Assembly (NCBI GenBank): GCA_035456105.1 | Contig: DATIDV010000041.1 | Span: forward strand, 27,219 to 91,218 | DNA: 64,000 nucleotides | Direction of reading: 5' to 3' | DNA from: Rhodocyclaceae bacterium | GTDB lineage: Bacteria; Pseudomonadota; Gammaproteobacteria; Burkholderiales; Rhodocyclaceae | Part shown: positions 5,028-56,521 of the stretch, piece after piece | Position numbering within the stretch: the first letter of the stretch is position 1 | Layout: every line of letters begins with the position of its first letter | The notes under the pieces: generated by a model | Told to the model about the DNA's origin: nothing | Database searches by the model: none | What the model saw: the letters and a program-made list of their open reading frames with translations, nothing else | Made by a program: the position numbers and the translations under genes

Positions 5028-6113
5028 ATGCTGCTCGAACTCGCGCGCTGGCTCAGTCAGGACATCCGGGCCTTCAATGTCTTTAACTACATCACGCTGC
5101 GCGCGATGCTGGCGGCGCTGACGGCACTGGTCATCTCCTTCATCGCCGGCCCGCCGGTGATTCGCTGGCTGACAGCCAAGAAGATCGGTCAAGCGGTGCG
5201 CGACGACGGCCCGCAAACGCACCTCGTCAAGGCAGGCACGCCGACCATGGGTGGCGCGCTGATCCTGATTGCCATCGGCATCACCACGCTCCTGTGGGGC
5301 GACCTGAAGAATCGCTACATGTGGGTGGTGCTGCTTGTGACCCTGGGCTTTGGTGCTGTCGGTTGGGTTGATGACTGGCGCAAGGTCGTGCACCGCGACC
5401 CCAAAGGCCTTGCCAGCCGCTGGAAGTATTTGTGGACTTCCCTCATTGCCGGCGGGGCTGCGGTCTATCTGGCCTTTAACGGCAGCGAAGGACAGACCTA
5501 TCTGATCGTTCCCTTCTTCAAGACGATTGCATATCCGCTGGGGATGTTCGGTTTTGTCGCACTGACCTATTTCGTCATCAACGGGACCAGCCACGCTGTC
5601 AATCTCACAGACGGCCTCGATGGTCTGGCCATCATGCCGGCCGTGATGGTCTCGTCCGCGCTGGCGATCTTTGCCTACGTCGCCGGTAACAAGGTCTTCT
5701 CCGGTTATCTCGGGCTGCCGTATGTGCCGGGCGCCGGTGAGCTGGCCGTCTTCTGTGGCGCAATGGCCGGTGCGGGCCTCGGCTTCCTCTGGTTCAACAC
5801 CTATCCCGCTGAAGTGTTCATGGGTGACGTCGGAGCGCTGGCACTGGGTGCTGCACTCGGCACCGTGGCCGTGATCGTGCGCCAGGAGATCGTGCTGTTC
5901 ATCATGGGCGGCGTGTTCGTCGCCGAAACGATTTCCGTGATGTTGCAGGTCGGCTATTTCAAGTGGAGCGGTGGCAAGCGCATCTTCCGCATGGCGCCGC
6001 TGCACCACCACTACGAGCTCGGTGGATGGAAGGAAACCAAGGTGGTCGTGCGCTTCTGGATCATCACCATCATGCTTGTTCTATTCGGACTTTCAACCTT
6101 GAAGTTGCGCTGA
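5028..6113 (+). CDS. mraY: Phospho-N-acetylmuramoyl-pentapeptide transferase MraY
   Basis: 361 aa polytopic membrane protein. The N-terminus MLLELARWL and the [10 protein letters not shown] and [10 protein letters not shown] motifs are typical of MraY. Confidence 0.95.
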
Positions 6114-6163
6114 CAGCGCGAGGTCTTACCGGTTTAAAAGAAAAGTGAAAAACGCAACGCACC

Positions 6164-6185
6164 GCCCCTGACGCAAGTCAGGGGC
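6164..6185 (+). other. Perfect 9-bp stem / 4-nt loop hairpin in the mraY-murD spacer
   Basis: GCCCCTGAC-GCAA-GTCAGGGGC read directly from the sequence. No T-run follows, so it is not called a terminator. Confidence 0.6.
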
Positions 6186-6243
6186 GCAAGCGTTTCAAGC
6201 TTTCACGTCATGGCGCAGTTCTGCAAATAACGATTGTCGAGAG

Positions 6244-7632
6244 ATGTACGCAAACAAGCTCTGCCTCGTGCTGGGTCTCGGTGAAACAGGTTTGGCCATG
6301 GCGCAATGGCTGACACGCTGCGGCGCGAAGCTGCGGGTGGCCGATTCGCGTGCCTTGCCACCCGGTACGGACGATCTGCGTCGGCGCCTGCCGGATGCGG
6401 AGCTCATCTGTGGTCCGTTCGAGAATGCATTGCTCGAGGGTGTCGAGATTGTTGCGCTAAGTCCTGGTCTTGATCCGCGTGATCCACTGATTCAGGCGGC
6501 CCGCGCGCAAGGCATTCCCATTACCGGCGAGATTGAACTGTTCGCCGCGGCGCTGCAGCAACTCGGCTGGCGCAAGGATGCCAAAGTCATCGCCATCACC
6601 GGTACGAACGGCAAGACCACCACGACTGCACTGGTCGGCGCGCTATGCCGTGCTGCAGGGCGTGAAACGGCCGTGGCGGGCAATATCTCGCCTGCCGCGC
6701 TCGCCGAACTCATGCGCCGTTTTGATGAAAACAGCCGCCCCGATATCTGGGTTCTGGAGCTGTCGAGCTTCCAGCTCGAAACCACGCGCTCACTGAATGC
6801 CGATGCCGCAACCGTGCTCAACGTGACGGACGATCATCTCGATCGTCACGGAGACATGGACGCCTACGCGCAAACCAAGGCAGCAATCTTCGTGGGCGAG
6901 GGCGTGCAGGTGCTTAACGCCGACGACGAACGCGTCGCCGCCATGGCACTCGCCGATCGCAAGGTCGTGTGCTTCAGCCTTGGCGCGCCGGCGATGCAGG
7001 ACCAATACGGTCTGCGCAAGCTTGAAGGCGAGGCCTGGCTCTGCAAAGGAGAAGCGGGTCTACTGCGTCAGACCGACATGCAACTCGCAGGCCTGCACAA
7101 TGCCGCCAATGCGCTTGCCGCGCTGGCGCTGTGCGAGGCGATCGGCTTGCCACGCGCACCGCTGATCGAAGGCCTGAAGAAGTTCCGCGGCCTCGCGCAT
7201 CGCGTCGAACTGGTGGCACACCGTGAAGATGGCGTCGACTTTTACGATGACTCCAAAGGCACGAATGTCGGCGCTACCCTGGCCGCACTGCAAGGCCTTG
7301 GCCGCAAGGTCGTGCTGATCGCCGGTGGTGATGGCAAGGGCCAGGATTTTCGTCCGCTGACCGAGGCTTTTCGCGAGCATGCGCGCGGCGTCGTGTTGAT
7401 CGGCCGTGATGCGCAGCGCATCGAAGCCGAGACCGCCAGCAGCGGTGTCGCCATGTGGCATGTCGCCGATATGGATGCTGCTGTGCTCAAAGCGAATTCC
7501 GTGGCAGAGGCGGGCGATGCGGTGATGCTGTCGCCTGCCTGCGCCAGTCTCGACATGTACCGTAACTATGCTCACCGCGCGCAGGTGTTTTGCGATGCGG
7601 TCAATGCCCTGCCCGGAGTACGCGCAGCATGA
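6244..7632 (+). CDS. murD: UDP-N-acetylmuramoylalanine--D-glutamate ligase MurD
   Basis: 462 aa with an N-terminal Rossmann-like LVLGLGETG and Mur ligase P-loop [10 protein letters not shown]. The dcw position fits. Confidence 0.94.
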
Positions 7633-9024: not shown

Positions 9025-10110
9025 ATGCCGACACTCATGGTCATGGCTGGCGGTACCGGCGGGCACATCTACCCGGGCATTGCTGTGGCTGACGCCATGC
9101 GCGATCGTGGCTGGAGCATCGTGTGGCTCGGCAACCCGGATGGCATGGAGGCACGTCTCGTACCGCAAAAGGGTTACGAGATGGCCTGGCTGAATTTCTC
9201 GGCACTGCGCGGCAAGGGTCTGCTGCGCAAGCTGATGCTGCCAGTCAATCTGCTGCGTGGTTTCTGGCAGGCTCTGCGGGCGATTCGCAAGACACGTCCC
9301 GACGTCGTGCTCGGCATGGGCGGTTATGTCACATTTCCCGGCGGCATGATGGCCGCCTTGCTGGCGCGTCCGCTGGTCGTGCATGAGCAAAACTCCGTTG
9401 CAGGTCTGTCGAATCGTGTGCTCGCCAGCGTAGCGACGCGCGTACTCAGCGGGTTTCCGGATGTCATGAAGGCCGCCGAGTGGATCGGTAATCCGGTACG
9501 CGCAGATATCGAGGCGATTGCAATGCCCGAAGAGCGCTTTGCCGGCCGGTCCGGGCCGTTGCGCGTGCTGGTAGTCGGTGGCTCGCTCGGTGCCCAAGCG
9601 CTCAACGAAGCGGTGCCCAGGGCGTTGGCCCTCATGCAGCTCGAGCAACGTCCCATCGTTGTCCACCAGTCCGGCGCAAAGCAGATCGATGCCTTGCGCG
9701 CAGCGTACGAACAGGCCGGTGTGCAGGGCGAACTCCTGCCCTTCATCGAAAACATGGCGGCGCGCTACGCGGAGGCCGATCTGGTGATCTGTCGCGCGGG
9801 CGCACTGACTGTCGCCGAGTTGGCGGCGGCGGGCGTCGCCAGCATCCTCGTGCCGTTTCCGCATGCGGTGGATGACCACCAGACGGGCAATGCACGCTTT
9901 CTCTCGGAGCGCGGCGCGGCCGATCTCGTTCCGCAGAACGATCTGACCCCGGCCTTGCTGGCTGACAAGCTCGGTGCGCTCGATCGGGAACGCCTGCTGT
10001 TCATGGCCTTGGCAGCGCGCAAATGTGCTCGCCGCAAGGTTGCCATGGCCGTCGCCGATGTCTGCGAGCGGCTCGCCAGCAAGCACGCAAACGCTGTGTC
10101 CAAGCCATGA
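9025..10110 (+). CDS. murG: UDP-N-acetylglucosamine--N-acetylmuramyl-(pentapeptide) pyrophosphoryl-undecaprenol GlcNAc transferase MurG
   Basis: 361 aa. The N-terminal [16 protein letters not shown] glycine loop and the C-terminal [16 protein letters not shown] are typical of MurG. Confidence 0.95.
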
Positions 10111-10345
10111 TGCAGCCATCGCGCGGCGCCAACCCGCATGTAGCCGTGGCTTTCAGCCCGACAGGCAGGCCGCTGGCCGGGGAGAGCCTTGCCGCAGGTA
10201 AGTCAAGACGTGTGTCGCAAGCGTGTTTCTGTAAGACTGCGCGGTTGTTCACGTGCGTCACCTTTTGCGAGATGCGCCACGGCAACGATTTTTCTGCACA
10301 GATTCAACGCTTTTTGCGCCAACAGGCGACGGTCTCAATGAAGGT

Positions 10346-11740
10346 ATGAAACACAAGGTCAAGAATATCCACTTCGTCGGTGTTGGCGGCTCGGGTATGA
10401 GCGGCATCGCCGAGGTGCTCAGCAATCTGGGCTTCTCGGTAAGCGGGTCCGACCTGGCCGAGAGCGCGACCACGCGTCGTCTGCAAGCGCAGGGCGTGAA
10501 AGTGATGATCGGCCATTCCGCCGACAATCTGCAGCAGGCCGATGCCATCGTGACCTCCACTGCTGTGCGTAGTGACAATCCGGAAGTGCTCGCCGCACGC
10601 GCCCGGCAGATTCCCGTCGTGCCACGTGCGCAGATGCTCGCCGAACTCATGCGTTTGAAGCAGGGCGTGGCGATTGCAGGCACACACGGCAAGACCACTA
10701 CGACCAGTCTCGTCACCAGCATCCTTGCCGAGGGCGGGCTGGACCCGACCTATGTGATTGGTGGCAAGCTCAATTCAGCGGGCGCCAATGCCAAGCTCGG
10801 CAGTGGTGATTTCCTCGTTGCCGAGGCCGACGAGTCGGATGCGTCCTTCCTGCTGCTGACGCCGGTGATCTCGGTCGTCACCAATATCGACGCCGACCAC
10901 ATGGAGACCTATGGACACGACTTCTCGCGTCTGCGTCAGGCCTTTGTCGAATTCCTGCAGCGCCTGCCGTTTTACGGCGTCGCCGTGCTGTGTGTGGATG
11001 ATCCGCACGTGCGCGAAATCATTCCCTTCGTGTCGAAGCAGATCGTGCGCTACGGCACTGATGAGTCGGCGCAAGTGCGCGCGGAAAACGTGCGTGCCGT
11101 GGGTGCGCAGATGCATTTTGATTGTGTACGCCGCAATGGCACCACATCGACGCTGCCGATCGTCCTGAATTCACCCGGGATGCATAACGTGCTCAATGCG
11201 CTCGCGGCCATTTCGGTGGCGACCGAACTGGGTGTCAGCGATGCGGCGATCCAGAAGGCGCTTGCCGAATTCCATGGTGTCGGGCGTCGTTTCCAGCGCT
11301 ACGGCGAAGTGGCACTCGCCACGGGTGGCGGTTTCACGCTGGTAGACGACTACGGCCACCATCCGGCCGAAATGGCAGCCACGCTTGCTGCGGCACGTGG
11401 GGCATTCCCGGGGCGGCGCCTGGTGCTGGCGTTTCAGCCGCATCGCTATACGCGGACACGCGACTGCTTCGAGGATTTCGTGCGCGTGCTTGGCACCGTC
11501 GACGCGCTGCTGCTCGCCGAGGTTTATGCCGCTGGCGAAACGCCGCTGGTGGCTGCCGACAGCCGCAGCCTGGCCCGCGCCTTGCGCGTGGCGGGCAAGA
11601 CTGAACCGCTGTTCGTGGAAGACATTGCCGACATGCCGGCGAGCATTCTCGAGAGTGCTCGAGATGGTGACGTGGTGCTGACGATGGGCGCGGGCTCGAT
11701 TGGTGCAGTGCCTTCAAAACTCGTGAGGAGCGATGAGTGA
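10346..11740 (+). CDS. murC: UDP-N-acetylmuramate--L-alanine ligase MurC
   Basis: Starts [25 protein letters not shown] and has P-loop [11 protein letters not shown] chose the ATG at 10346; the ORF part from 10253 has no homology-like content. The last codons lie inside repeat element A. Confidence 0.94.
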
Positions 11741-49014: not shown

Positions 49015-51087
49015 TTATTTCAGGAACTGCGATTCATCCGATTGCTTTGGCAGTTGTGCACGTCTGGATATGCGCTTCGTGACGTCTTGCTGCCACACCA
49101 CGTCATCGTCCACCGCGTATAGCCAGCAGGCCTCGCCGAGGCGTTCGCAATAACTCAGGGCGTCTTCCATGGCGGCAGCGCCCAGCCAGTAGCGTCCGAA
49201 GCCTTCGCGCGTGACTAGAAAAGCGCGTGGCGCGGGCTTCTCCAGAAAGGCGCGATAAGTCGTCAGCTGATCTTGCGGCAAAGGTACAGCGGCCAGATCC
49301 TTCACATCAGCAAAACCGCTGGCATTGGGGCGAAGGCGCATGTCTCCGCTGTCAGCACCATCCGTGTTTGTTGGCGACAGTGCTGCCGATGGCGCGCCCT
49401 GCAGGGCCCAGACGACGCGGTCATCCACCGCATACAGATAGCAGGGGCGGCCGCGCGACAGCACCAGGCAATGGGCCAGTGCATCGGCTGACGCGTTTGC
49501 GCCGATCTTGCTCGACCAGGCTGCGAGGTCACTACCATTGGGGCCGATCGCAAATGCACGCGGACGCCTGGATGTGTTGAGAAAGCGCTCGTAGCCGACT
49601 CGCCCCGCAGCATCGAGCAGTGGTACGTCCTGGACCCGGTTCAGGCGTGGATCCGTCGTGTTGTCCAGTGCTGGCTGTGGTGAATGGGTGGCTGTTTCCG
49701 GATCCCAGACGACGGCGTCATCCACGGCATACAGGGCGCAAGGGACGGCAAGAGTCGAACAGGTTCTCAGTGCTTCCGCGGCGGCGTTGCTGCCGGATCG
49801 GTATGACCACTTAGTGGAGCCCGGGCCGATGGCAAATGCGCGCGGACGCAACGGTGTGTTCAGGAAGCGCTGATAGCCCGTGCGCCCCGCATTGTCAATG
49901 AAGGGCACGTCGGCCACCCGGTACAGGCGTGGATCGACGTCGCTGGCAGGTTTTTCGGCGTCCACTGCAAGTGGTGCATCCGAGACCGCAATGCCCAGTC
50001 CGAGATTCGCAGGGAGTGATTTTCTGTCGGGTAGCAACTGCAGGCCATTCAAGCGCTTGTTACGGATTTCACCAAGCGTGGCACTTTGCCAGAGGGTACG
50101 CTCGGCCGAGAAAGGGTGGCGCTGGGCGAGGCCGCCGTTGGTCTTGCTGGTCAGGTTGCTGGCCAGGCGACGCCAGATGTCGCTTGCGCGCTCGCCATCG
50201 AATCCGGCAAGCACCGCGATATAAGCGCCCAGATAGTCAGCCGCGCGCTCTTCCGTCGCCGGGTATTGCAATTCAGCCTTGTCTCCAGATTTGAGAGCTG
50301 CGGCCGGCCCGCCGGCGAGGGCAAAGATGCTGTGGGCGACGCCATGTGCCAGAACGAGCGCCAGCTCGTCATCGTTGCCGATGAAACGCAGCATGCCCGT
50401 GCTGACCGACATCGCGCCATTCGAGACCTCTGCGATTAGCGCGTCATTGCGCAGCAGGTACGGGACCTCTTTGCAGATCAGTTGAGCCTTGGCTCTGACT
50501 GTCTGTACCTTCTCGGCCGAAACAAGTGTCAGCACGAAAGACCGGTTTTCAGCCAACGTGTTCCCTGGTCTGTTGAGCACCCAGCTGGCATGCATTGTTT
50601 TGCCGGTAGCGGTGTCGGTCAAAGCCTGCAGTCGATCGCCAGCGCGTGCACCGGCCTGGCGAAATGGACTGAACGTCGGGACGTCCAGAAAGACTGGATA
50701 CGGCGTTGCATTCGTATCCAGCGCTTCAAGAAATCCCTTGCGCAAGTCCTCCGGCAAATCCTGACTGGCAATGGGGGGGGCGCCAAGACTCCAGCCGCGA
50801 TTCTGCAGACAATAAGGGCTCGCTGCCCGTTGTATCGCGAACGCGACGCGCTCAAGACGTGCCCGGTCGGCAAGATACAGGCGCGTTTCGTAGATGCGCT
50901 GGACGCGTGCTTCAACCTCGATGCGCGCAGTGGTCGAGGAGGACGGTGTATCCACAGCATGCGCCGTGCACGACAGTGCTGAGACGAGTGTTGCAGTCAC
51001 CAGTCGGCGCAAGCGGGGCTTGAGCGCATTTGTGACGCTACATATGGCCCAGGCCGGAATTTCAATAATTTGCACTGCTTTGCTCAC
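49015..51087 (-). CDS. Secreted M48-like pseudo-peptidase with PDZ-like segment and three C-terminal Cys-pair repeat modules (paralog 1)
   Basis: 690 aa with a signal peptide (RLRRLVTATLVSALSCTAHA). It has HGVAH in place of HEXXH and EERAADYLGAYIAVLAGFD resembling the M48 third-ligand region. Three ~75-aa modules end in C..(6-7)..C.LYAVDD.VVW. The GTG start at 51087 is uncertain; an internal TTG is possible. Confidence 0.7.
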   Translation of the reverse strand: MSKAVQIIEIPAWAICSVTNALKPRLRRLVTATLVSALSCTAHAVDTPSSSTTARIEVEARVQRIYETRLYLADRARLERVAFAIQRAASPYCLQNRGWSLGAPPIASQDLPEDLRKGFLEALDTNATPYPVFLDVPTFSPFRQAGARAGDRLQALTDTATGKTMHASWVLNRPGNTLAENRSFVLTLVSAEKVQTVRAKAQLICKEVPYLLRNDALIAEVSNGAMSVSTGMLRFIGNDDELALVLAHGVAHSIFALAGGPAAALKSGDKAELQYPATEERAADYLGAYIAVLAGFDGERASDIWRRLASNLTSKTNGGLAQRHPFSAERTLWQSATLGEIRNKRLNGLQLLPDRKSLPANLGLGIAVSDAPLAVDAEKPASDVDPRLYRVADVPFIDNAGRTGYQRFLNTPLRPRAFAIGPGSTKWSYRSGSNAAAEALRTCSTLAVPCALYAVDDAVVWDPETATHSPQPALDNTTDPRLNRVQDVPLLDAAGRVGYERFLNTSRRPRAFAIGPNGSDLAAWSSKIGANASADALAHCLVLSRGRPCYLYAVDDRVVWALQGAPSAALSPTNTDGADSGDMRLRPNASGFADVKDLAAVPLPQDQLTTYRAFLEKPAPRAFLVTREGFGRYWLGAAAMEDALSYCERLGEACWLYAVDDDVVWQQDVTKRISRRAQLPKQSDESQFLK

Positions 51088-51304
51088 AGCATTGGCTTCG
51101 CATTATTGCTTGTCTGTGCGGCCTCAAGGTGGGTGACTCCCTCAAGGATCTGTTGGCGCCGTATTGTAGCCGCCTGGTCGAACCACGGGCTTAAACATGG
51201 CCTGGAATCCGTGACCTCCTTCAGTTTCGTGCGCAACGGTGGCGATGCAAGCGTGTGAGACTGGGCAGAGGCGCCCATTGCGGTCCGGTCATGGCCCGGA
51301 AATG

Positions 51305-51331
51305 AAAAAGGCACTTGTAAGTGCCTTTTTT
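51305..51331 (-). terminator. Rho-independent (bidirectional-looking) terminator after the Gly/Asp-tail gene
   Basis: AAAAAGGCACTT-GT-AAGTGCCTTTTTT. On the minus strand the stem is followed by a T-run, 30 nt after the stop at 51361. Confidence 0.85.
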
Positions 51332-51360
51332 GCTCGTTAGCGGGGTGCAATCAGGGGGCA

Positions 51361-51630
51361 TCAGCTGTCGCCGCCGCCATCGCCGCCATCTCCACCTCCG
51401 CCATCTCCACCGTCGCCGCCATCTCCTCCGCCGTCACCGTCGCCTCCTCCGCCGTCGCCTCCACCATCTCCGCCATCGCCATCACCTCCATCGTCAGCGA
51501 GAGCGAAGCCTTTTCTTCCAAAGAGCTGATTGCGGCGAACGCCACGAATGTTCAGTGCAAGCGACCAGTTTGTCGGCGCATCCTCTTCTGAGGTTTCGTT
51601 AGGTTCATTCACTTCAGAATTCTTGCTCAT
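51361..51630 (-). CDS. Small protein (89 aa): hydrophilic N-terminal 45 aa plus a 44-residue C-terminal tail of only Gly/Asp (terminal Ser)
   Basis: The ATG at 51630 is preceded by GGAGGG at 8-nt spacing, and a strong terminator lies 30 nt after the stop. The sequence is MSKNSEVNEPNETSEEDAPTNWSLALNIRGVRRNQLFGRKGFALA followed by DDGGDGDGGDGGGDGGGGDGDGGGDGGDGGDGGGGDGGDGGGDS. No family recognised. Confidence 0.6.
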   Translation of the reverse strand: MSKNSEVNEPNETSEEDAPTNWSLALNIRGVRRNQLFGRKGFALADDGGDGDGGDGGGDGGGGDGDGGGDGGDGGDGGGGDGGDGGGDS

Positions 51631-51753
51631 TGGTATTCCCTCCATAAGAGAAACAACAGGTGCCATTTACGGGCAGTTCTTCGATTACCCTATTTACATA
51701 CTACAGCCGATAAGGCTGACGGGTGTTTTTTCCACGACCCAGCGGGGCAAGAT

Positions 51754-53538
51754 TCAGTTTTCGAGGAAGCCCGATTCGTCGTTTCTTGTCGGCAGCTGGC
51801 TGCTGTGCGAAATCCGCTTGTTCGCATCCTTGCTCCAGACCACTTCGTTATTGACTGCGTATAGCCAGCACGGGGCATCAATGCGCGCGCAATGCGCCAA
51901 TGCATCATGCATGGCGGTCGGGCCTATCCAGTACAGACCCTTGCCATCCTGCGTAATCAGAAAGGCTCGCGGTGAGGGTTTCTCCAGGAAGGCCTGATAT
52001 ATGGGCAGCCTGTCGGCCGAGAGTGGCACGGCTGTCAGATCATTGATTTCGGCAAATCCTGTGCCTTTGGGTTGGCCAAGCAGTTCGCTTGACTTGCGGT
52101 TCGCAATGGACTGTGGCTGATCGAGCGCTGTCGCCGGATTCCAGACCACCTTGTCGTCGACCGCATAGAGGTAGCACGGGCCGCGCGCGAATACTGAGCA
52201 GTGTTCAAGAGCGTCGGCCGCTGCGTTCGTGCCGAACTTGAGGGACCAAGCGCCACGCCCTGTCTTGGCTGGGCCAAGGGCAAATGCACGTGGCCGTAGC
52301 GGGCTATCCAGAAACCGCTGGTAAGCCGCTATTCCCTCGTTGTCGATGAATGGAAGATTCGTAAACATACGCAGGCGCGGGTCATCCTTGGCGGCTTGGG
52401 CGTTGTGCTCGCTGTCGTTTTGAGGAAGGGCGGAGCCTGCGCGGAAATCTGTTTCTGAAAACGCCAGGGAGAAAAGACGATCCGGTATCTGTCGTTCGCC
52501 GGCCTGCGCTTGACGAAGGATGTCATTACTCACTACCTGAATTTGCACGCCACGGGAGGGGGAGAGAGGATGCCGCGCAGAAAAGCTGTCCTTGCCGTGG
52601 CTCGCGGGAATGCTGGCGATACGTCTCCAGACGTTTCGGGCTCGCATGATATCGAAGTGTGCTGCGATGAGCAGGTAGGCTCCCAGATAGTCAGCCGCTT
52701 CTTCGTCTGCCGAAGAAAATCGCTCCGGCGTTTTGCTGGTCGAGTGGCTGGACCTGGATGCACGGGCAAAACGCAGTTGGTCATGGATGAGTTCATTGGC
52801 GATCAGATAGGCCAGTTCGTCATCATTGGCTACGAATCGCAGAACGCCCTGGCTCAGATGCAAAACGCCTGAATCAACTTGCGCGACTAGATTGCTTGTT
52901 CTCAGAAACTGAAGCCGTACGTCACAAACAAGCTGCGGTAGCGTCTTGAGCGATACCTTGAGGTCGCCCCGCTGAACCTCCACTTCAACGGCTTCATTCA
53001 GTATGAAGGTGCTTGTCGGGCGATTCAGCGTCCAGCCGGGCGATGGTCGTTTTCCGGTCGCCCGATCAGTCATCTGTAGCAGGACGTCGCCTGGCTGAAT
53101 ACCTGCTTTCGCCGCGGGGCTATCCAAGGCGATATTCAGGAAGCGAGGCAACTTGCTGGTGGGTGATGGCGGCTGATCCGCAAAGCCTTCACGCAAGTCT
53201 TGCGGAAGGGCCTCCATCGCAAACGGGGGGATTCCCAAACTGAATTTTCGTTGTTGAACGCAATACGGCGCACCTGCCTTGATCACCGCATAGGTCACTC
53301 TTTCGGCACGTTGCAGATCGGCGAGGTAGGCGTCGGTTGCAAACTGCTGTTGCGCGCGCGCTTCGCCGGCGAGTTGTTCGTAGTCTGGTGTGGGCTGGCC
53401 CGCCGCGCTGGCGATACGGTCGGAGAGGCCCGTAGCGGACACTATCGCGCACGCTACGAAACGAAGTAGCCAGAGCCTTTTGGCAAGGGTGGCCACCTGT
53501 CGTGTCGTGTTGCCGATTCGTGGCATGCGTCTATTCAC
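51754..53538 (-). CDS. Secreted M48-like pseudo-peptidase with PDZ-like segment and two C-terminal Cys-pair repeat modules (paralog 2)
   Basis: 594 aa, colinear with paralog 1 over the first ~385 residues. It has NELIH in place of HEXXH at the same positions (248-252), a PDZ-like SPAAKAGIQPGDVLLQM, and EEAADYLGAYLLIAAHFD. Two modules end in C......C.LYAV[DN][DN].VVW. Confidence 0.7.
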   Translation of the reverse strand: MNRRMPRIGNTTRQVATLAKRLWLLRFVACAIVSATGLSDRIASAAGQPTPDYEQLAGEARAQQQFATDAYLADLQRAERVTYAVIKAGAPYCVQQRKFSLGIPPFAMEALPQDLREGFADQPPSPTSKLPRFLNIALDSPAAKAGIQPGDVLLQMTDRATGKRPSPGWTLNRPTSTFILNEAVEVEVQRGDLKVSLKTLPQLVCDVRLQFLRTSNLVAQVDSGVLHLSQGVLRFVANDDELAYLIANELIHDQLRFARASRSSHSTSKTPERFSSADEEAADYLGAYLLIAAHFDIMRARNVWRRIASIPASHGKDSFSARHPLSPSRGVQIQVVSNDILRQAQAGERQIPDRLFSLAFSETDFRAGSALPQNDSEHNAQAAKDDPRLRMFTNLPFIDNEGIAAYQRFLDSPLRPRAFALGPAKTGRGAWSLKFGTNAAADALEHCSVFARGPCYLYAVDDKVVWNPATALDQPQSIANRKSSELLGQPKGTGFAEINDLTAVPLSADRLPIYQAFLEKPSPRAFLITQDGKGLYWIGPTAMHDALAHCARIDAPCWLYAVNNEVVWSKDANKRISHSSQLPTRNDESGFLEN

Positions 53539-53748: not shown

Positions 53749-54405
53749 TCAGTTGCTCGCGACTTCGCCTTTGGCGTGCAACACGCTTTGCACCAGCTCG
53801 GCGAGCGAGTCCGCTTCCATCTTTTCCATGACGCGGGCACGGTGCACTTCCACCGTTTTGATCGAGATGCCCAACTCGTCGGCGATTTGCTTGTTGAGGC
53901 GGCCGGCGACGATCAGCTCCAGCACCTCGCGTTCGCGTGGTGTGAGTTGTTCGATATGGCGCAAGGCGTCCGCGCCCTGGCGGCGATGCTGGTGCTGGGT
54001 GCGGTCGCGTGCGAGGCATTGCTCGATGAGGTTGAGCATGTCCTGGTCATGGAAGGGTTTTTCGATGAAGTCGAAAGCGCCTTTCTTCAACGCGGTGACG
54101 GCCATCGGCACGTCGCCATGGCCGGTAATGAAGATCACGGGCAGGGTCGAGTGCTGGCTATTGAGCTTCTCGTGCAGCTCGAGCCCACTCATGCCCGGCA
54201 TGCGAATGTCGAGGATCAGGCAGCCGCGCAGGGTGGGCGTCCACACCTCGAGGAAGGCTTCGGCGGAGGGATAGGAGGCGACCTTGAGGCCGGTGGATTC
54301 AAGGAGCCAGACGAGGGAGTCGCGCAGCGCATCGTCATCGTCGATGATGTGCACGAGTTGATCGGCAGACTGGCTTTCAGGAGACGGTGACGGATTGAGG
54401 CTCAA
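53749..54405 (-). CDS. Two-component response regulator, FixJ/NarL (LuxR-type HTH) family
   Basis: REC domain (HIIDDDDALRDSL...LILDIRMPGMSGLEL...KKGAFDFIEKP) plus LuxR HTH (LTPREREVLELIVAGRLNKQIADELGISIKTVEVHR). The start is uncertain: TTG 54405 with a GGAGA RBS (overlaps the kinase end) or a downstream GTG. Confidence 0.88.
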   Translation of the reverse strand: MSLNPSPSPESQSADQLVHIIDDDDALRDSLVWLLESTGLKVASYPSAEAFLEVWTPTLRGCLILDIRMPGMSGLELHEKLNSQHSTLPVIFITGHGDVPMAVTALKKGAFDFIEKPFHDQDMLNLIEQCLARDRTQHQHRRQGADALRHIEQLTPREREVLELIVAGRLNKQIADELGISIKTVEVHRARVMEKMEADSLAELVQSVLHAKGEVASN

Positions 54406-56521
54406 GGCTGTTCTCCAGAGGCAAAGTGAATTTGAAGATACTCCCACCCATGGGGTTTGGGTCAACCCACAAGCGGCCATTGTGAAATTCGATGATGGAA
54501 CGACAGATATTCAGGCCCATGCCCATGCCTTCGGCTTTGGTGCTGAAGAAGGCAGAGAAGAGTTTCTCGCGGTCTGTCTCGCCGATGCCGTGACCCAGGT
54601 CGGTGACCGAGACTTCGATCAAGTCATCGAGCTGGCGCGCCGCGACGACGACTACGCGGCGCTCCGGCGGCTGGCCGATCTCCGCCTCGGCAGCATTCTT
54701 GACGAGGTTGAGCAGAACCTGTTCGATCATGATGCGATCGGCATAGACACTGGGCAAGCCCGGCGCGATGTGCGATTCGATCTTGATGCCAAGGCGTTGT
54801 GCTTCGATTTCAGCAATGCCCAGCGCATCCTCTGCGATTTCCGTCAGGGCTACGTCATTGCGTTTGGGCTCGCTCTTACGCACGAAGTCGCGCACGCGGC
54901 GTACGATGTGGCCGGCCCGTGCCGCCTGAGCGTTGGCTTTCTCCATGGCGTTGAGAATATCGTCATGCTTGTACTCGCCACTCTTTAGGCGATTGACGCA
55001 GCCCTTGGCGTAGTTGGCGATGGCAGACAGAGGCTGGTTCAGTTCGTGGGCCAGGGTCGAGGCCATCTCACCCATGGTGATCAGGCGTGAGGTGCGAGCC
55101 AGTCGTGCTTCCTGTTCGCGATTGAGTTCTTCGACGTGCTTCAGTTCGGAGATGTCGGTAGCCACGGCGAGGCGCACGACGCGACCGTCGACCCACAGCG
55201 TGGCGCGCTCGCGCAAGTGGAACCAGTGGCCGGTGATGGGGTGCTGCAGCTCGCCGTCGAAGAGTTCTCGCGGCAATTGAGCCGGATCGAGATTGCGCGG
55301 ATCGACGAGGTAGTCGCCCATTTCCGGCCGCGGAATGGCGAGACCGTCGTGACCTACCAGGGCGCTGCTACCGTCGCGACGCAGGAAAGCGCGGTTGGCA
55401 TACAGCACTTCATCGTCGGCCGCATCGACCACGTAGACAGCGGCGTCCAGACCATCCAGCACGGCGGTGAAACGTTCGTAGGCAGCTTCGAGGTCGCCGC
55501 GAACACGTCGTGATTCAGTGATGTCGGTCAGTGCCGACATCCAGCCTGTCTGCACACCGTTGGCATCGACAAGAGGTGATTCGTGCAGGCGCACGTCCAG
55601 CGTGCTTCCGTCCGGGCGCTGGATGCGCGCGTCAAAACCTTCTTTCGGCGCCTTGCCGGACAGGCACAGCGCAAGGTTGTGCCAGTTGGTGGCGTACTCG
55701 TTTTCCGGCCAGTAGGCGAATGGAGGCTCAGAGCCCACCAGTTCCTCGGTTTTGCGACCAGTGATTTCGCAGAACGCATGGTTGACGTAGATCGTGCGGC
55801 CGCGCAGGTCGATGGCGCGCAAGCCAGTGGAGACGGACTCTTCCATGGCCTTGCGAAAGGCTGTCTCGGCACGCAACGCGTCTTCCGAAACCCGGCGATC
55901 CGACACATCGTGGGCGACGGCAAATACTAGCCGATCGTCCTTCACGGGGTTGGCGCTCCATGACAGCCATTTGTAGCTGCCGTCACCACAGCGGCAGCGC
56001 ACCTCGAAATTGCAGGCCTTGCCTTCGGCGAGGCTCGCCAGGGCCGTCAGCACAATGTGCACGTCGTCGGGGTGAATCAGGTCTGTGATGGTTTTTTCTG
56101 GCAGGTGGTCGGGGCGCTGCCCCAAAACATTCAGAAAGGCCGGATTGGCGCGCTTGACCGTGCCGTCCATGCCGAGCACGCACAGCAGGTCGAGCGACAA
56201 GGCAAAGATCTGGTCGCGCTCGCCGGCGATGATCTCCATGCGCTGGTGCTGCTCGCGTGCCGTCCACAGACTCCAGGAGGCGACGGCGAGCAGGGCGACG
56301 ATGAGCAGGGTGGACAAGGCATCGACGCTGGTCGCTGCCGGGTTACCAATGGAGCGATTGGCGATCCAGATGAGCCCTATGAGGGTTGCGATGCCGATGA
56401 TGACCAGCGCGAAGGAGGGCGCGCGGGCCTCACGTGGTGACGACGCTGAGGTGTGCGGATCCATGGGGGCCAGACTTTCGACGGTGCTTGATTGTCTGTG
56501 CTGCATCTGCGCGGACGGCAT
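54377..56521 (-). CDS. Membrane-anchored multi-PAS sensor histidine kinase
   Basis: 714 aa with two N-terminal TM helices and several PAS-like segments. It has a HisKA H-box (MASTLAHELNQPLSAI) and HATPase N/G boxes (LLNLVKNAAEA, DLGHGI, GMGMGLNICRSI). Confidence 0.9.
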   Translation of the reverse strand: MPSAQMQHRQSSTVESLAPMDPHTSASSPREARAPSFALVIIGIATLIGLIWIANRSIGNPAATSVDALSTLLIVALLAVASWSLWTAREQHQRMEIIAGERDQIFALSLDLLCVLGMDGTVKRANPAFLNVLGQRPDHLPEKTITDLIHPDDVHIVLTALASLAEGKACNFEVRCRCGDGSYKWLSWSANPVKDDRLVFAVAHDVSDRRVSEDALRAETAFRKAMEESVSTGLRAIDLRGRTIYVNHAFCEITGRKTEELVGSEPPFAYWPENEYATNWHNLALCLSGKAPKEGFDARIQRPDGSTLDVRLHESPLVDANGVQTGWMSALTDITESRRVRGDLEAAYERFTAVLDGLDAAVYVVDAADDEVLYANRAFLRRDGSSALVGHDGLAIPRPEMGDYLVDPRNLDPAQLPRELFDGELQHPITGHWFHLRERATLWVDGRVVRLAVATDISELKHVEELNREQEARLARTSRLITMGEMASTLAHELNQPLSAIANYAKGCVNRLKSGEYKHDDILNAMEKANAQAARAGHIVRRVRDFVRKSEPKRNDVALTEIAEDALGIAEIEAQRLGIKIESHIAPGLPSVYADRIMIEQVLLNLVKNAAEAEIGQPPERRVVVVAARQLDDLIEVSVTDLGHGIGETDREKLFSAFFSTKAEGMGMGLNICRSIIEFHNGRLWVDPNPMGGSIFKFTLPLENSLEPQSVTVS

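Follow-up and report, generated by a model that had tools for sequence, protein, structure and literature searches.

A small open reading frame (ORF) of 89 codons lies on the minus strand of the window, which is the whole 64-kb stretch of Rhodocyclaceae DNA analysed here, between two genes on the same strand that encode M48/PDZ-like pseudo-peptidases. The features of this locus are listed in Table 1. The sequence-only reading had singled out this ORF as a separately terminated gene with a tail of only Gly and Asp (plus a terminal Ser), and we therefore first verified each element. The observation held in every item that was checked. The two flanking proteins are paralogues with 38% identity, and in both the HExxH motif is broken. 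An upstream in-frame ATG at 51666, which would give a 101-aa form, has no counterpart in the homologues.

Table 1. Coordinates of the features at the small ORF locus (positions in the window; all on the minus strand).
Position	Feature	Details
51361..51630	Small ORF, Gly/Asp-tailed small protein	89 codons plus stop; ATG at 51630, TGA at 51363-51361
51638..51643	Shine-Dalgarno sequence	GGAGGG, 7 nt before the ATG
51496..51630	Leader part	Codons 1-45; acidic, disordered N-terminus followed by a predicted helix at residues 22-43
51544..51570	Family signature	NWSLALNIR, with W22, L24 and R29; R32 lies three codons downstream of this span
51364..51495	Core/tail	44 codons: 29 Gly, 14 Asp and a terminal Ser; 12 Asp followed by Gly, 11 Asp in GDG context
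51305..51331	Intrinsic terminator	11-bp hairpin AAAAAGGCACUUACAAGUGCCUUUUU plus U-run, 29 nt after the stop codon
51690..51705	Upstream box	GTAGTATGTAAATA; may be a promoter element, low confidence
51754..53538	Upstream neighbour	594-aa 'up-type' M48/PDZ-like pseudo-peptidase; NELIH in place of HExxH; N-terminal hydrophobic signal-like segment; equals P0090 (VLC92_17490, 100% identity)
49015..51087	Downstream neighbour	690-aa 'dn-type' paralogue; HGVAH in place of HExxH; one extra Cys-containing DUF4189-like repeat; weak BepA-type M48 hit; P0103 (VLC92_17480)
53749..56521	Two-component system	GerE/LuxR-type response regulator (53749-54480) and PAS histidine kinase (54377-56521); possible regulators, context only

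The terminator hairpin folds at -15.5 kcal/mol (z = -4.4), and none of 200 shuffled sequences folded as well, although a simple terminator scanner did not flag it. The same scan found no sigma-70 consensus match upstream, and reading of the upstream DNA by eye gave only poor GG-N10-GC fits to a sigma-54 promoter, which was therefore dropped. The upstream box, TTGTATGTAAA(T/G), is conserved only in the window and its two closest relatives, L006 and L014 (loci other than the window are referred to by such numbers; L014 is from the cultured isolate Uliginosibacterium sp. H3). An Rfam scan of positions 50900-52000 found no RNA family.

To test whether the ORF is a gene, we searched for homologues. 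A first search returned six proteins (P0001-P0006, E-values 9e-16 to 2e-4), and an exhaustive profile search of 1.84 billion representatives found only 6 true members (E-values 2e-21 to 3e-8). In total, nine loci from Rhodocyclaceae genomes and metagenomes, including the window, keep this frame. GGAG/GGGAG/GGGGGA-type Shine-Dalgarno sites lie at the same distance in L006, L014, L001, L007, L004, L009 and L010, while L003 has a weaker GGAAAG. An oriented terminator accompanies the gene in the complete loci; equivalent hairpins with different stem sequences follow the stop in L014, L006, L003, L001, L004 and L009. The motif [ND]W[SN]L[AL][LM]x[IV]R..R is shared by all nine loci, and W22, L24, R29 and R32 are invariant in the 8-sequence protein alignment, which was too divergent for pattern building. 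A scan of GTDB representative genomes refound only the RYN_555 MAG, but the pattern used was too strict to catch the H3 variant NWSLALHIR. Two scans of JGI metagenomes found no member, the second giving only a chance hit in gcvP.

The sequence-only reading had named frame conservation among relatives, and conservation of the His/Arg-rich frame on the opposite strand, as points that could overturn the gene, and both came out in its favour. Gly/Asp-type DNA is open in five of the six frames by composition alone, with stops in the tail only in the +3 frame, but every frame other than that of the small ORF has stops in the leader part in several loci. No other frame, including the His/Arg-rich one, is open in all nine loci. 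Moreover, synonymous change (pS) exceeded non-synonymous change (pN) in all 36 leader comparisons, with a ratio of about 0.09 for L001 against L007. No Pfam (E ≤ 1), NCBIfam or PADLOC family matched the window protein; P0003 likewise gave no family in NCBIfam and PADLOC, and P0056, scanned against NCBIfam only, gave none. The NCBI annotation of Uliginosibacterium sp. H3 chose the wrong frame and the window's ORF is absent from protein collections. The gene is thus either missed or called in the wrong frame, which leaves the family invisible in protein databases.

The predicted protein has two parts. An AlphaFold2 model showed a single helix at residues 22-43 (mean pLDDT 85 for residues 21-30), which carries the signature NWSLALNIRxxRR, and disorder elsewhere. 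By direct reading of the nine leaders, the RR is followed by polar or charged residues without any hydrophobic stretch, and we found neither a Sec/Tat-type signal nor a transmembrane segment. The leader-core junction always has a small residue or Met immediately before the first tail residue, which is Asp in all nine tails as delimited here. The tails are 19-44 residues long in the eight complete genes (the contig of L007 ends inside the ORF), and together the nine tails hold 292 residues: 190 Gly, 87 Asp, 14 Ser and 1 Thr. Of the 87 Asp, 74 are followed by Gly. Glu, Asn and Ala never occur, even though 22% of single-base changes to an Asp codon would give Glu. A run of 43 Gly/Asp residues, as in the window, is far beyond chance, and it is the only run of this kind in any frame of the window; more to the point, the same architecture recurs in the eight other loci. 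Tandem Repeats Finder reported only imperfect periodicities of 12-42 nt at 65-86% match, and all four Gly codons are used in the family's tails. The tract is therefore not a simple DNA repeat, and its strict composition points to selection on the protein rather than on the DNA.

Next, we compared the gene neighbourhoods. In seven of the nine loci the small ORF directly follows the orthologue of the upstream pseudo-peptidase gene, and it persists where the flanking proteins have diverged to 40-60% identity. The adjacency also holds in L009, where the second paralogue and TamB are missing and the next gene, trpC, is convergent. The two-component system is syntenic with this block in L003 and L014. 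L001 and L007 lack the M48-like neighbours. In two Rhodocyclales MAGs (L001/L002) the gene lies 100 nt upstream, on the same strand, of a 2OG-FeII_Oxy_3 oxygenase gene that overlaps a DUF6817 gene by 4 nt, and L007 shows the same nadA-to-small-ORF arrangement before its contig ends. In relatives that lack the small ORF at this site only nadA's own terminator occupies it, which makes the juxtaposition a specific event. This cis linkage nevertheless rests on one lineage, namely two related MAGs from one study, and the oxygenase/DUF6817 pair occupies a conserved position after nadA in several Rhodocyclaceae whether or not the small ORF is there, so that it may have another substrate. A link between the pair and nadA through free Asp chemistry was set aside because nadA has its own terminator before the oxygenase gene. 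No transporter, immunity gene, protease or other maturase is conserved around any of the nine loci, and no transporter, ATP-grasp or protease gene lies within 10 kb on either side in L001 or in the M48-type loci.

The pair appears to be of the SmaO/SmaX type, which was shown in 2025 to convert Asp in GDG motifs to beta-hydroxy-Asp and then to aminomalonate (Kim et al., JACS 2025, PMC12186529). The DUF6817 protein matched PF20680 with E = 2e-23. In the numbering of P0070, the DUF6817 protein VLC92_13300, residues H35, H44, H68, T73, N149 and Q153 are invariant and R109 is nearly so, and their spacing reproduces that of SmaX H31/H39/H63/T68/R104/N143/Q147 apart from two single-residue offsets. 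An AlphaFold2 model (pLDDT 90) predicted an HD-superfamily fold, and the oxygenase keeps its HxD...H motif. The correspondence to SmaO and SmaX thus rests on Pfam membership and on residue spacing taken from the paper. A PDB sequence search gave one marginal hit for the enzymes, a putative hydroxylase (9blq), and nothing for DUF6817. Searching the window by tblastn with the L001 oxygenase, DUF6817, nadA and SLT genes found no homologue. However, P0070 shares the locus-tag prefix VLC92 with the genes flanking the small ORF, and an overlapping Fe/2OG partner gene beside it, seen in L013, encodes a protein 80% identical to the L001 copy. Subject to correct binning of this MAG, the pair is therefore encoded in the same genome on another contig. 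Uliginosibacterium sp. H3 (L011 and L014) also has both the small ORF and the pair. No other Gly/Asp ORF was found near the enzyme pairs in L011, L012 or L013.

Taken together, these data show, with little room for doubt, that the ORF is a genuine, independently terminated gene for an 89-aa cytoplasmic small protein with a conserved leader and a Gly/Asp core. What this protein is for is inferred from sequence and context alone, and we give the following reading a probability of roughly 0.45. The protein would be a leader-plus-core precursor, in which the Fe(II)/2-oxoglutarate oxygenase converts core Asp residues to beta-hydroxy-Asp and the DUF6817 single-iron HD-type oxygenase oxidatively cleaves these to aminomalonate. 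The product, for which both modification and metal binding are inferred and no modification has been observed, would carry up to about a dozen malonate-type side chains and would be a dense, polyanionic chelator of Ca2+ or other metals. In this genome the modification would act in trans. The absence of Glu and Asn from the tails is consistent with this view, since SmaO accepts only Asp and needs Gly after it (PMC12186529), and the authors of that study noted that many putative precursors next to such pairs have Asp in Gly-rich regions. On the other hand, in seven of nine loci the gene is not next to the enzymes, and co-occurrence of the three rare families could simply reflect one small clade. 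More speculatively, the leader helix would be the enzyme recognition element; export, leader removal and any link to the pseudo-peptidases likewise remain at the level of speculation.

The interpretation offered in the sequence-only reading was thus partly supported. Its claims of a real, separately terminated cistron, of a product without signal peptide or transmembrane helix and of a product not recognisable as a described family held, and its suggestion of a leader-plus-core precursor became the best reading. Its suggestion that the product serves as a substrate for the neighbours was not supported: the paralogues appear to be periplasmic, are catalytically dead in every copy and are absent from L001 and L007, and they are thus unlikely to be the processing enzymes. 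Its suggestion of a length-variable, slippage-prone tract held for the variation in length only.

If the main reading is correct, it would bear on the origin of aminomalonate, which has been detected in protein hydrolysates but has remained largely unexplained. The only defined enzymatic route in peptides, SmaO/SmaX, was reported on a peptide with two sites, whereas this conserved protein offers 6-14 ideal GDG sites next to, or in the same genome as, such a pair, and would show what the chemistry is used for in nature. It would also define a precursor class with no other maturase. The idea involves three small genes, and a cultured host exists. A bolder and rather doubtful extension, which our data do not rule out, is that the pair is the sole, class-defining maturase of a new kind of ribosomal product of roughly 90 aa. 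Its tail would be converted at about a dozen sites into poly-aminomalonate or poly-beta-hydroxy-Asp, giving a genetically encoded, Gla-like polychelator for Ca2+, Fe or other metals. Made in trans from a gene kept next to periplasmic M48/PDZ pseudo-peptidases, it would be linked to envelope biology and would be the first dedicated natural aminomalonate-rich protein.

Among the alternatives, an unmodified, intrinsically disordered acidic protein is possible but less likely. Its helix would dock on a partner and its tail would act as a polyanionic or Ca2+-binding flexible arm, with a function tied to the two-component system and pseudo-peptidase block, that is, to envelope or outer-membrane biogenesis next to TamB. 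The adjacency in seven of nine loci, the model of one helix plus disorder and the lack of a modifying enzyme near most loci are in agreement with this. However, the pseudo-peptidases have signal-like N-termini whereas the small protein has none, which would place them in different compartments, and a generic polyanion should tolerate Glu. The gene also exists without these neighbours, and shared synteny within one clade could explain the adjacency. Binding of the C-terminus by a PDZ domain was judged unlikely, because the compartments differ and the C-termini (-DS, -GG, -GT, -GS) are unlike classical hydrophobic PDZ ligands. A precursor of a different peptide, such as a microcin-like Gly-rich toxin or a substrate of another modification or export system, with a merely coincidental adjacency to the pair, seems unlikely. 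The leader-plus-core architecture, strong ribosome-binding site and own terminator are typical of precursor genes, but no conserved maturation or immunity genes accompany it and the core lacks the Ser/Cys or other residues used by the known Gly-rich microcins. A regulatory leader ORF, in which ribosome stalling at Gly/Asp codons would control the terminator that follows by 15-35 nt and hence the downstream gene, is very unlikely. Although a gene on the same strand follows in most loci, the downstream genes differ between contexts, the convergent trpC in L009 leaves nothing to regulate, the folds showed only the terminator with no evident antiterminator pairing, and the leader's amino-acid sequence is under purifying selection. 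Finally, the possibility that the ORF is a fortuitously open GC-rich repeat, or that the real gene lies in another frame or strand, is effectively refuted by the frame, leader and codon data above.

Compared with known systems, amino-acid biosynthesis attenuator leader peptides (trpL, hisL and similar) are also short ORFs enriched in particular codons and followed by an intrinsic terminator, but the present ORF is 3-6 times longer and has a conserved N-terminal protein sequence. RTX/hemolysin-type nonapeptide repeats (GGxGxDxUx) are likewise Gly- and Asp-rich and associated with Ca2+ binding. Here, however, there was no Pfam HemolysinCabind hit, no hydrophobic position, no regular 9-residue period (the 27-nt period had only 70% matches) and no T1SS context, and the tail is predicted to be disordered. 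The microcin B17 precursor McbA and other Gly-rich class I/IIb microcin precursors share a small ribosomal precursor with an N-terminal leader and a very Gly-rich core, but microcin cores depend on Ser and Cys (azoles) or on a Ser-rich C-terminus for siderophore attachment, and their maturase and export genes are clustered; here the only partner residue is Asp, and no such genes are present. The 24 'unclassified' RiPP clusters with SmaO-SmaX pairs noted in PMC12186529 resemble the present case in that the pair could itself be the class-defining enzyme set and in that the precursors have Asp in Gly-rich regions, but they were defined by a GG-motif precursor and a PCAT, neither of which is present here. 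The closest system is the SmaA/SmaO/SmaX graspetide cluster (group 18). The leader of the small protein is unrelated to that of SmaA and shows no LSxxELxxIxGG-type double-glycine motif, there is no ATP-grasp enzyme or PCAT exporter, the enzymes are not adjacent in the window, and the core has 6-14 candidate Asp sites instead of 2 and consists of little but Gly and Asp. What the two have in common is the leader-plus-core layout, the substrate motif of Asp flanked by Gly (DGDG/GDG), and an Fe(II)/2OG oxygenase paired with a DUF6817 HD-type protein with the His/His/Asn site, adjacent to the homologous small ORF in L001/L002 and present in this genome.

We first re-examined the minus-strand ORF and found it to be exactly as the sequence-only reading had described it. 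The ORF comprises 89 codons, and a GGAGGG sequence ends 7 nt upstream of its ATG. The tail of 44 residues holds 29 Gly, 14 Asp and 1 Ser, and it is the only Gly/Asp run in any frame of the window. Downstream of the TGA stop an 11-bp hairpin plus U-run folds at -15.5 kcal/mol, with z = -4.4 against shuffles, although a simple terminator scanner did not flag it. Tandem Repeats Finder reported only imperfect periodicities (65-86% matches), and all four Gly codons are used in the tails of the family, so the tract is not a DNA microsatellite. The interpretation that accompanied the observation was partly supported: of the possibilities raised there, a leader-plus-core precursor is the one that fits best (see below). 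Coordinates of all features are collected in the table.

Coordinates of the small ORF, its flanking features and the related loci
Sequence	Feature	Coordinates	Strand
Window	Small ORF with Gly/Asp tail (ATG at 51630, TGA at 51363-51361)	51630-51361	-
Window	Terminator hairpin plus U-run	51331-51305	-
Window	Leader-core junction (codons 42-46)	about 51493-51507	
Window	Upstream boxes	about 51690-51705 and 51644-51660	-
Window	Upstream M48/PDZ-like neighbour ('up-type')	51754-53538	-
Window	Downstream M48/PDZ-like paralogue	49015-51087	-
L014 (Uliginosibacterium sp. H3, JAYXHS010000002.1)	Conserved small ORF, 85 aa	9914-10171	
L014	Annotated wrong-frame gene VVD49_10210	10041-10331	
L001 (Rhodocyclales MAG)	Fe(II)/2OG oxygenase and DUF6817 pair	10332-11566	
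L011 (Uliginosibacterium sp. H3)	Fe(II)/2OG oxygenase and DUF6817 pair	5366-6609	
L012 (Rhodocyclaceae)	Fe(II)/2OG oxygenase and DUF6817 pair	5261-6576	
L013 (contig of the window's MAG)	Fe(II)/2OG oxygenase and DUF6817 pair	515-1752	
L013	2OG oxygenase alone	515-1141	
L015 (JGI contig Ga0163148_10000038)	Chance pattern match in gcvP	5991-6095	

To determine whether the gene is conserved, we searched 5.8 billion proteins, which returned six true homologues of 60-93 aa with E-values of 9e-16 to 2e-4. An exhaustive profile search of 1.84 billion cluster representatives added only one more (P0056). Reading the DNA of a syntenic locus in the isolate Uliginosibacterium sp. H3 revealed a further, unannotated copy (L014). 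This makes nine distinct loci, counting the window. A loosened DNA pattern for the family hit only a glycine dehydrogenase (gcvP) gene in JGI contig L015, which is a chance match and not a family member. The nine loci share a leader of 39-47 aa with the signature [ND]W[SN]L[AL][LM]x[IV]R..R and a tail of Gly and Asp, which is 19-44 residues long in the eight complete genes. A Shine-Dalgarno site lies 6-9 nt before the aligned ATG, that of locus L003 being a weaker GGAAAG. In all seven complete loci that were folded, a terminator hairpin lies within about 35 nt of the stop, with stem sequences that differ between loci. In contrast, the boxes TTGTATGTAAA(T/G) and GTTGTTTCTTATGG(A/G)GG upstream of the small ORF are conserved only in the three closest relatives (window, L006 and L014), and no sigma-70 consensus match was found.

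Coding in this frame is supported by three further results. Conservation of the frame among relatives, rather than of the opposite-strand His/Arg-rich frame, had been named beforehand as a test, and only this frame is open in all nine loci; each other frame, including the His/Arg-rich one, has stops in the leader in several loci. Synonymous differences exceeded non-synonymous differences in all 36 pairwise leader comparisons (for L001 against L007, pS 0.71 and pN 0.17). Finally, AlphaFold2 predicted one helix at residues 22-43, with pLDDT about 85 at the motif, and disorder elsewhere.

Next, we analyzed the composition of the tails. Across the nine loci the 292 tail residues are 190 Gly, 87 Asp, 14 Ser and 1 Thr, without any Glu, Asn, Ala, Val or Arg. 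This is unusual, since between the more distant loci about 40-55% of non-synonymous leader sites differ (pN 0.26-0.56 across all pairs except the two sister MAGs), and since 22% of single-base changes to Asp codons would give Glu. Of the 87 Asp, 74 are followed by Gly. The requirement is therefore for Asp specifically, in a Gly context, and not just for negative charge. In all nine loci the tail begins directly after a small residue or Met (...ALA/DD, SLA/DG, AYA/DG, LGA/DG, SSM/DG, FSA/DD, GMA/DG), which may represent a processing or recognition site, and five of the eight complete genes end in -DS.

The gene occurs in two genomic contexts. In the window, L003, L004/L005, L006, L009, L010 and L014 it directly follows the orthologue of the up-type M48/PDZ-like protein. 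Usually the second paralogue and a convergent TamB come after it, while a PAS kinase with a GerE-type regulator comes before it; in L009 the second paralogue and TamB are missing and the next gene is a convergent trpC. The two flanking proteins of the window are 38% identical paralogues that give weak Peptidase_M48, PDZ and DUF4189 signals. Every M48-like copy, in the window and in L003, L004, L006 and L009, has a degenerate HExxH of the type NExxH, HGxxH, HQxxH, NExxR or NAxxH (NELIH, HGVAH, NEFIH, NELAR, NEIAH, HQLAH, NAIAH), so these proteins are probably pseudo-peptidases. They have signal-like N-termini and two or three Cys-containing DUF4189-like C-terminal repeats, one gives a weak BepA-type hit, and they sit next to TamB. 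The second context was observed in two Rhodocyclales MAGs (the RYN MAGs, loci L001/L002 and L007). In L001/L002 the order is nadA, small ORF plus terminator, a 2OG-FeII_Oxy_3 gene 100 nt downstream, and a DUF6817 gene that overlaps it by 4 nt. L007 has the same nadA-to-sORF arrangement, but its contig ends inside the ORF.

A full-text literature search for DUF6817 identified the study of Kim et al., JACS 2025 (PMC12186529). In that work SmaO, an Fe(II)/2OG oxygenase, beta-hydroxylates Asp in the DGDG motif of a RiPP precursor; it accepts only Asp, and the Gly after it is essential. SmaX, whose only HHpred matches were DUF6817 and HD_4, is a single-iron HD-type enzyme that cleaves beta-hydroxy-Asp to aminomalonate. 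The authors note that many putative precursors next to such pairs have Asp in Gly-rich regions, and that some pairs occur as fusion proteins. We found such a natural fusion of 2OG-FeII_Oxy_3 and DUF6817 domains in P0089 (342 aa, on an ENA contig of 21 kb). The Gly/Asp tail is in effect a concatenation of the SmaO recognition motif.

We then asked whether the Rhodocyclaceae pair is of the SmaO/SmaX type, a comparison that rests on Pfam membership and on the residue spacing published for SmaX rather than on a direct alignment with SmaO or SmaX. The DUF6817 proteins match PF20680 with E = 2e-23. An alignment of 27 homologues has invariant H35, H44, H68, T73, N149 and Q153 and nearly invariant R109 (numbering of P0070, a DUF6817 protein). 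Their spacing reproduces that of SmaX H31, H39, H63, T68, R104, N143 and Q147, apart from two single-residue offsets. The AlphaFold2 model has pLDDT 90 and a predicted HD-superfamily fold, with small alarmone hydrolases and Mesh1 as its best PDB matches (TM about 0.55), which is in agreement with the HD_4 relationship. The oxygenase keeps HxD...H and is 70-87% identical among these genomes. The copy on L013 gave a sub-threshold match to the NCBIfam FlmC-family 2OG-Fe(II) oxygenase (57 bits against a cut-off of 240) and to CRISPR-associated 2OG models in PADLOC, and its only PDB sequence hit was a 'putative hydroxylase', 9blq, at E = 0.006.

Subject to correct binning of the MAG, the window's genome also has the pair. 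The upstream neighbour of the small ORF is 100% identical to VLC92_17490 and the downstream neighbour is VLC92_17480, both from a Rhodocyclaceae MAG. A DUF6817 protein with the same locus-tag prefix, VLC92_13300 (P0070), is 62% identical to the L001 enzyme. An exact-match contig (L013) shows the C-terminus of nadA, a terminator, the 2OG gene (80% identical to the L001 copy) and DUF6817, in this order. The isolate Uliginosibacterium sp. H3 likewise has both loci (L011 with the pair, L014 with the small ORF). The enzymes are therefore present in trans, while they are not in the 64 kb window.

Taken together, the analysis shows with high confidence that this is a real gene, whereas the modification of its product is inferred from sequence and genomic context alone. 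In the reading that we tentatively favour, at a probability of about 0.45, the Gly/Asp core is a substrate whose Asp residues would be converted to aminomalonate or hydroxy-Asp. This is supported by the chemical match between the tail and SmaO specificity, the Asp-not-Glu constraint and the leader-plus-core layout. It is further supported by the position of the small ORF in the RYN MAGs, precisely where relatives have only nadA's terminator before the 2OG gene, a specific juxtaposition with a very low prior probability. This juxtaposition is, however, a single evolutionary event. The pair keeps a conserved position just after nadA in several Rhodocyclaceae regardless of the small ORF, separated from nadA in L011 and L013 by nadA's own terminator, and may therefore serve another substrate. 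In addition, seven of nine loci instead keep the small ORF beside a pseudo-peptidase, and no exporter, protease or double-glycine leader is present. All three families are confined to one small clade, so their co-occurrence is weak evidence.

The strongest alternative, which we consider possible but less likely, is an unmodified disordered acidic protein that works with the M48/PDZ block. This would explain the commoner synteny, but it conflicts with the apparent difference in compartment, the non-canonical C-termini and the exclusion of Glu. Another kind of peptide precursor seems unlikely, since no supporting genes are conserved around the loci. An attenuator leader ORF is very improbable, as it is contradicted by the convergent gene in L009 and the purifying selection on the leader. 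Non-coding DNA or a gene in another frame is rejected by the conservation of frame, leader and expression signals described here.

The family has no Pfam, NCBIfam or PADLOC model, and only seven members other than the window and H3 copies could be found in 15 billion proteins and two DNA collections. It is absent from, or mis-framed in, public annotation. The H3 gene VVD49_10210 (WP_327599075.1, 'Secreted protein' in UniRef) is a wrong-frame ORF (LLTAVAGMVEGMVE...) that runs over the Gly/Asp tract and the terminator. The conserved small ORF of H3 is not in any protein collection, and neither is the window's ORF in its 89-aa or 101-aa form. No follow-up on poly-GDG precursors was found in the literature searched. 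Asp-to-aminomalonate conversion by an oxygenase and DUF6817 pair is already known from the Sma system. Relative to that system, the arrangement described here has a new leader and a core that would be all substrate, it has no other maturase or exporter, and it is encoded in trans in most genomes.
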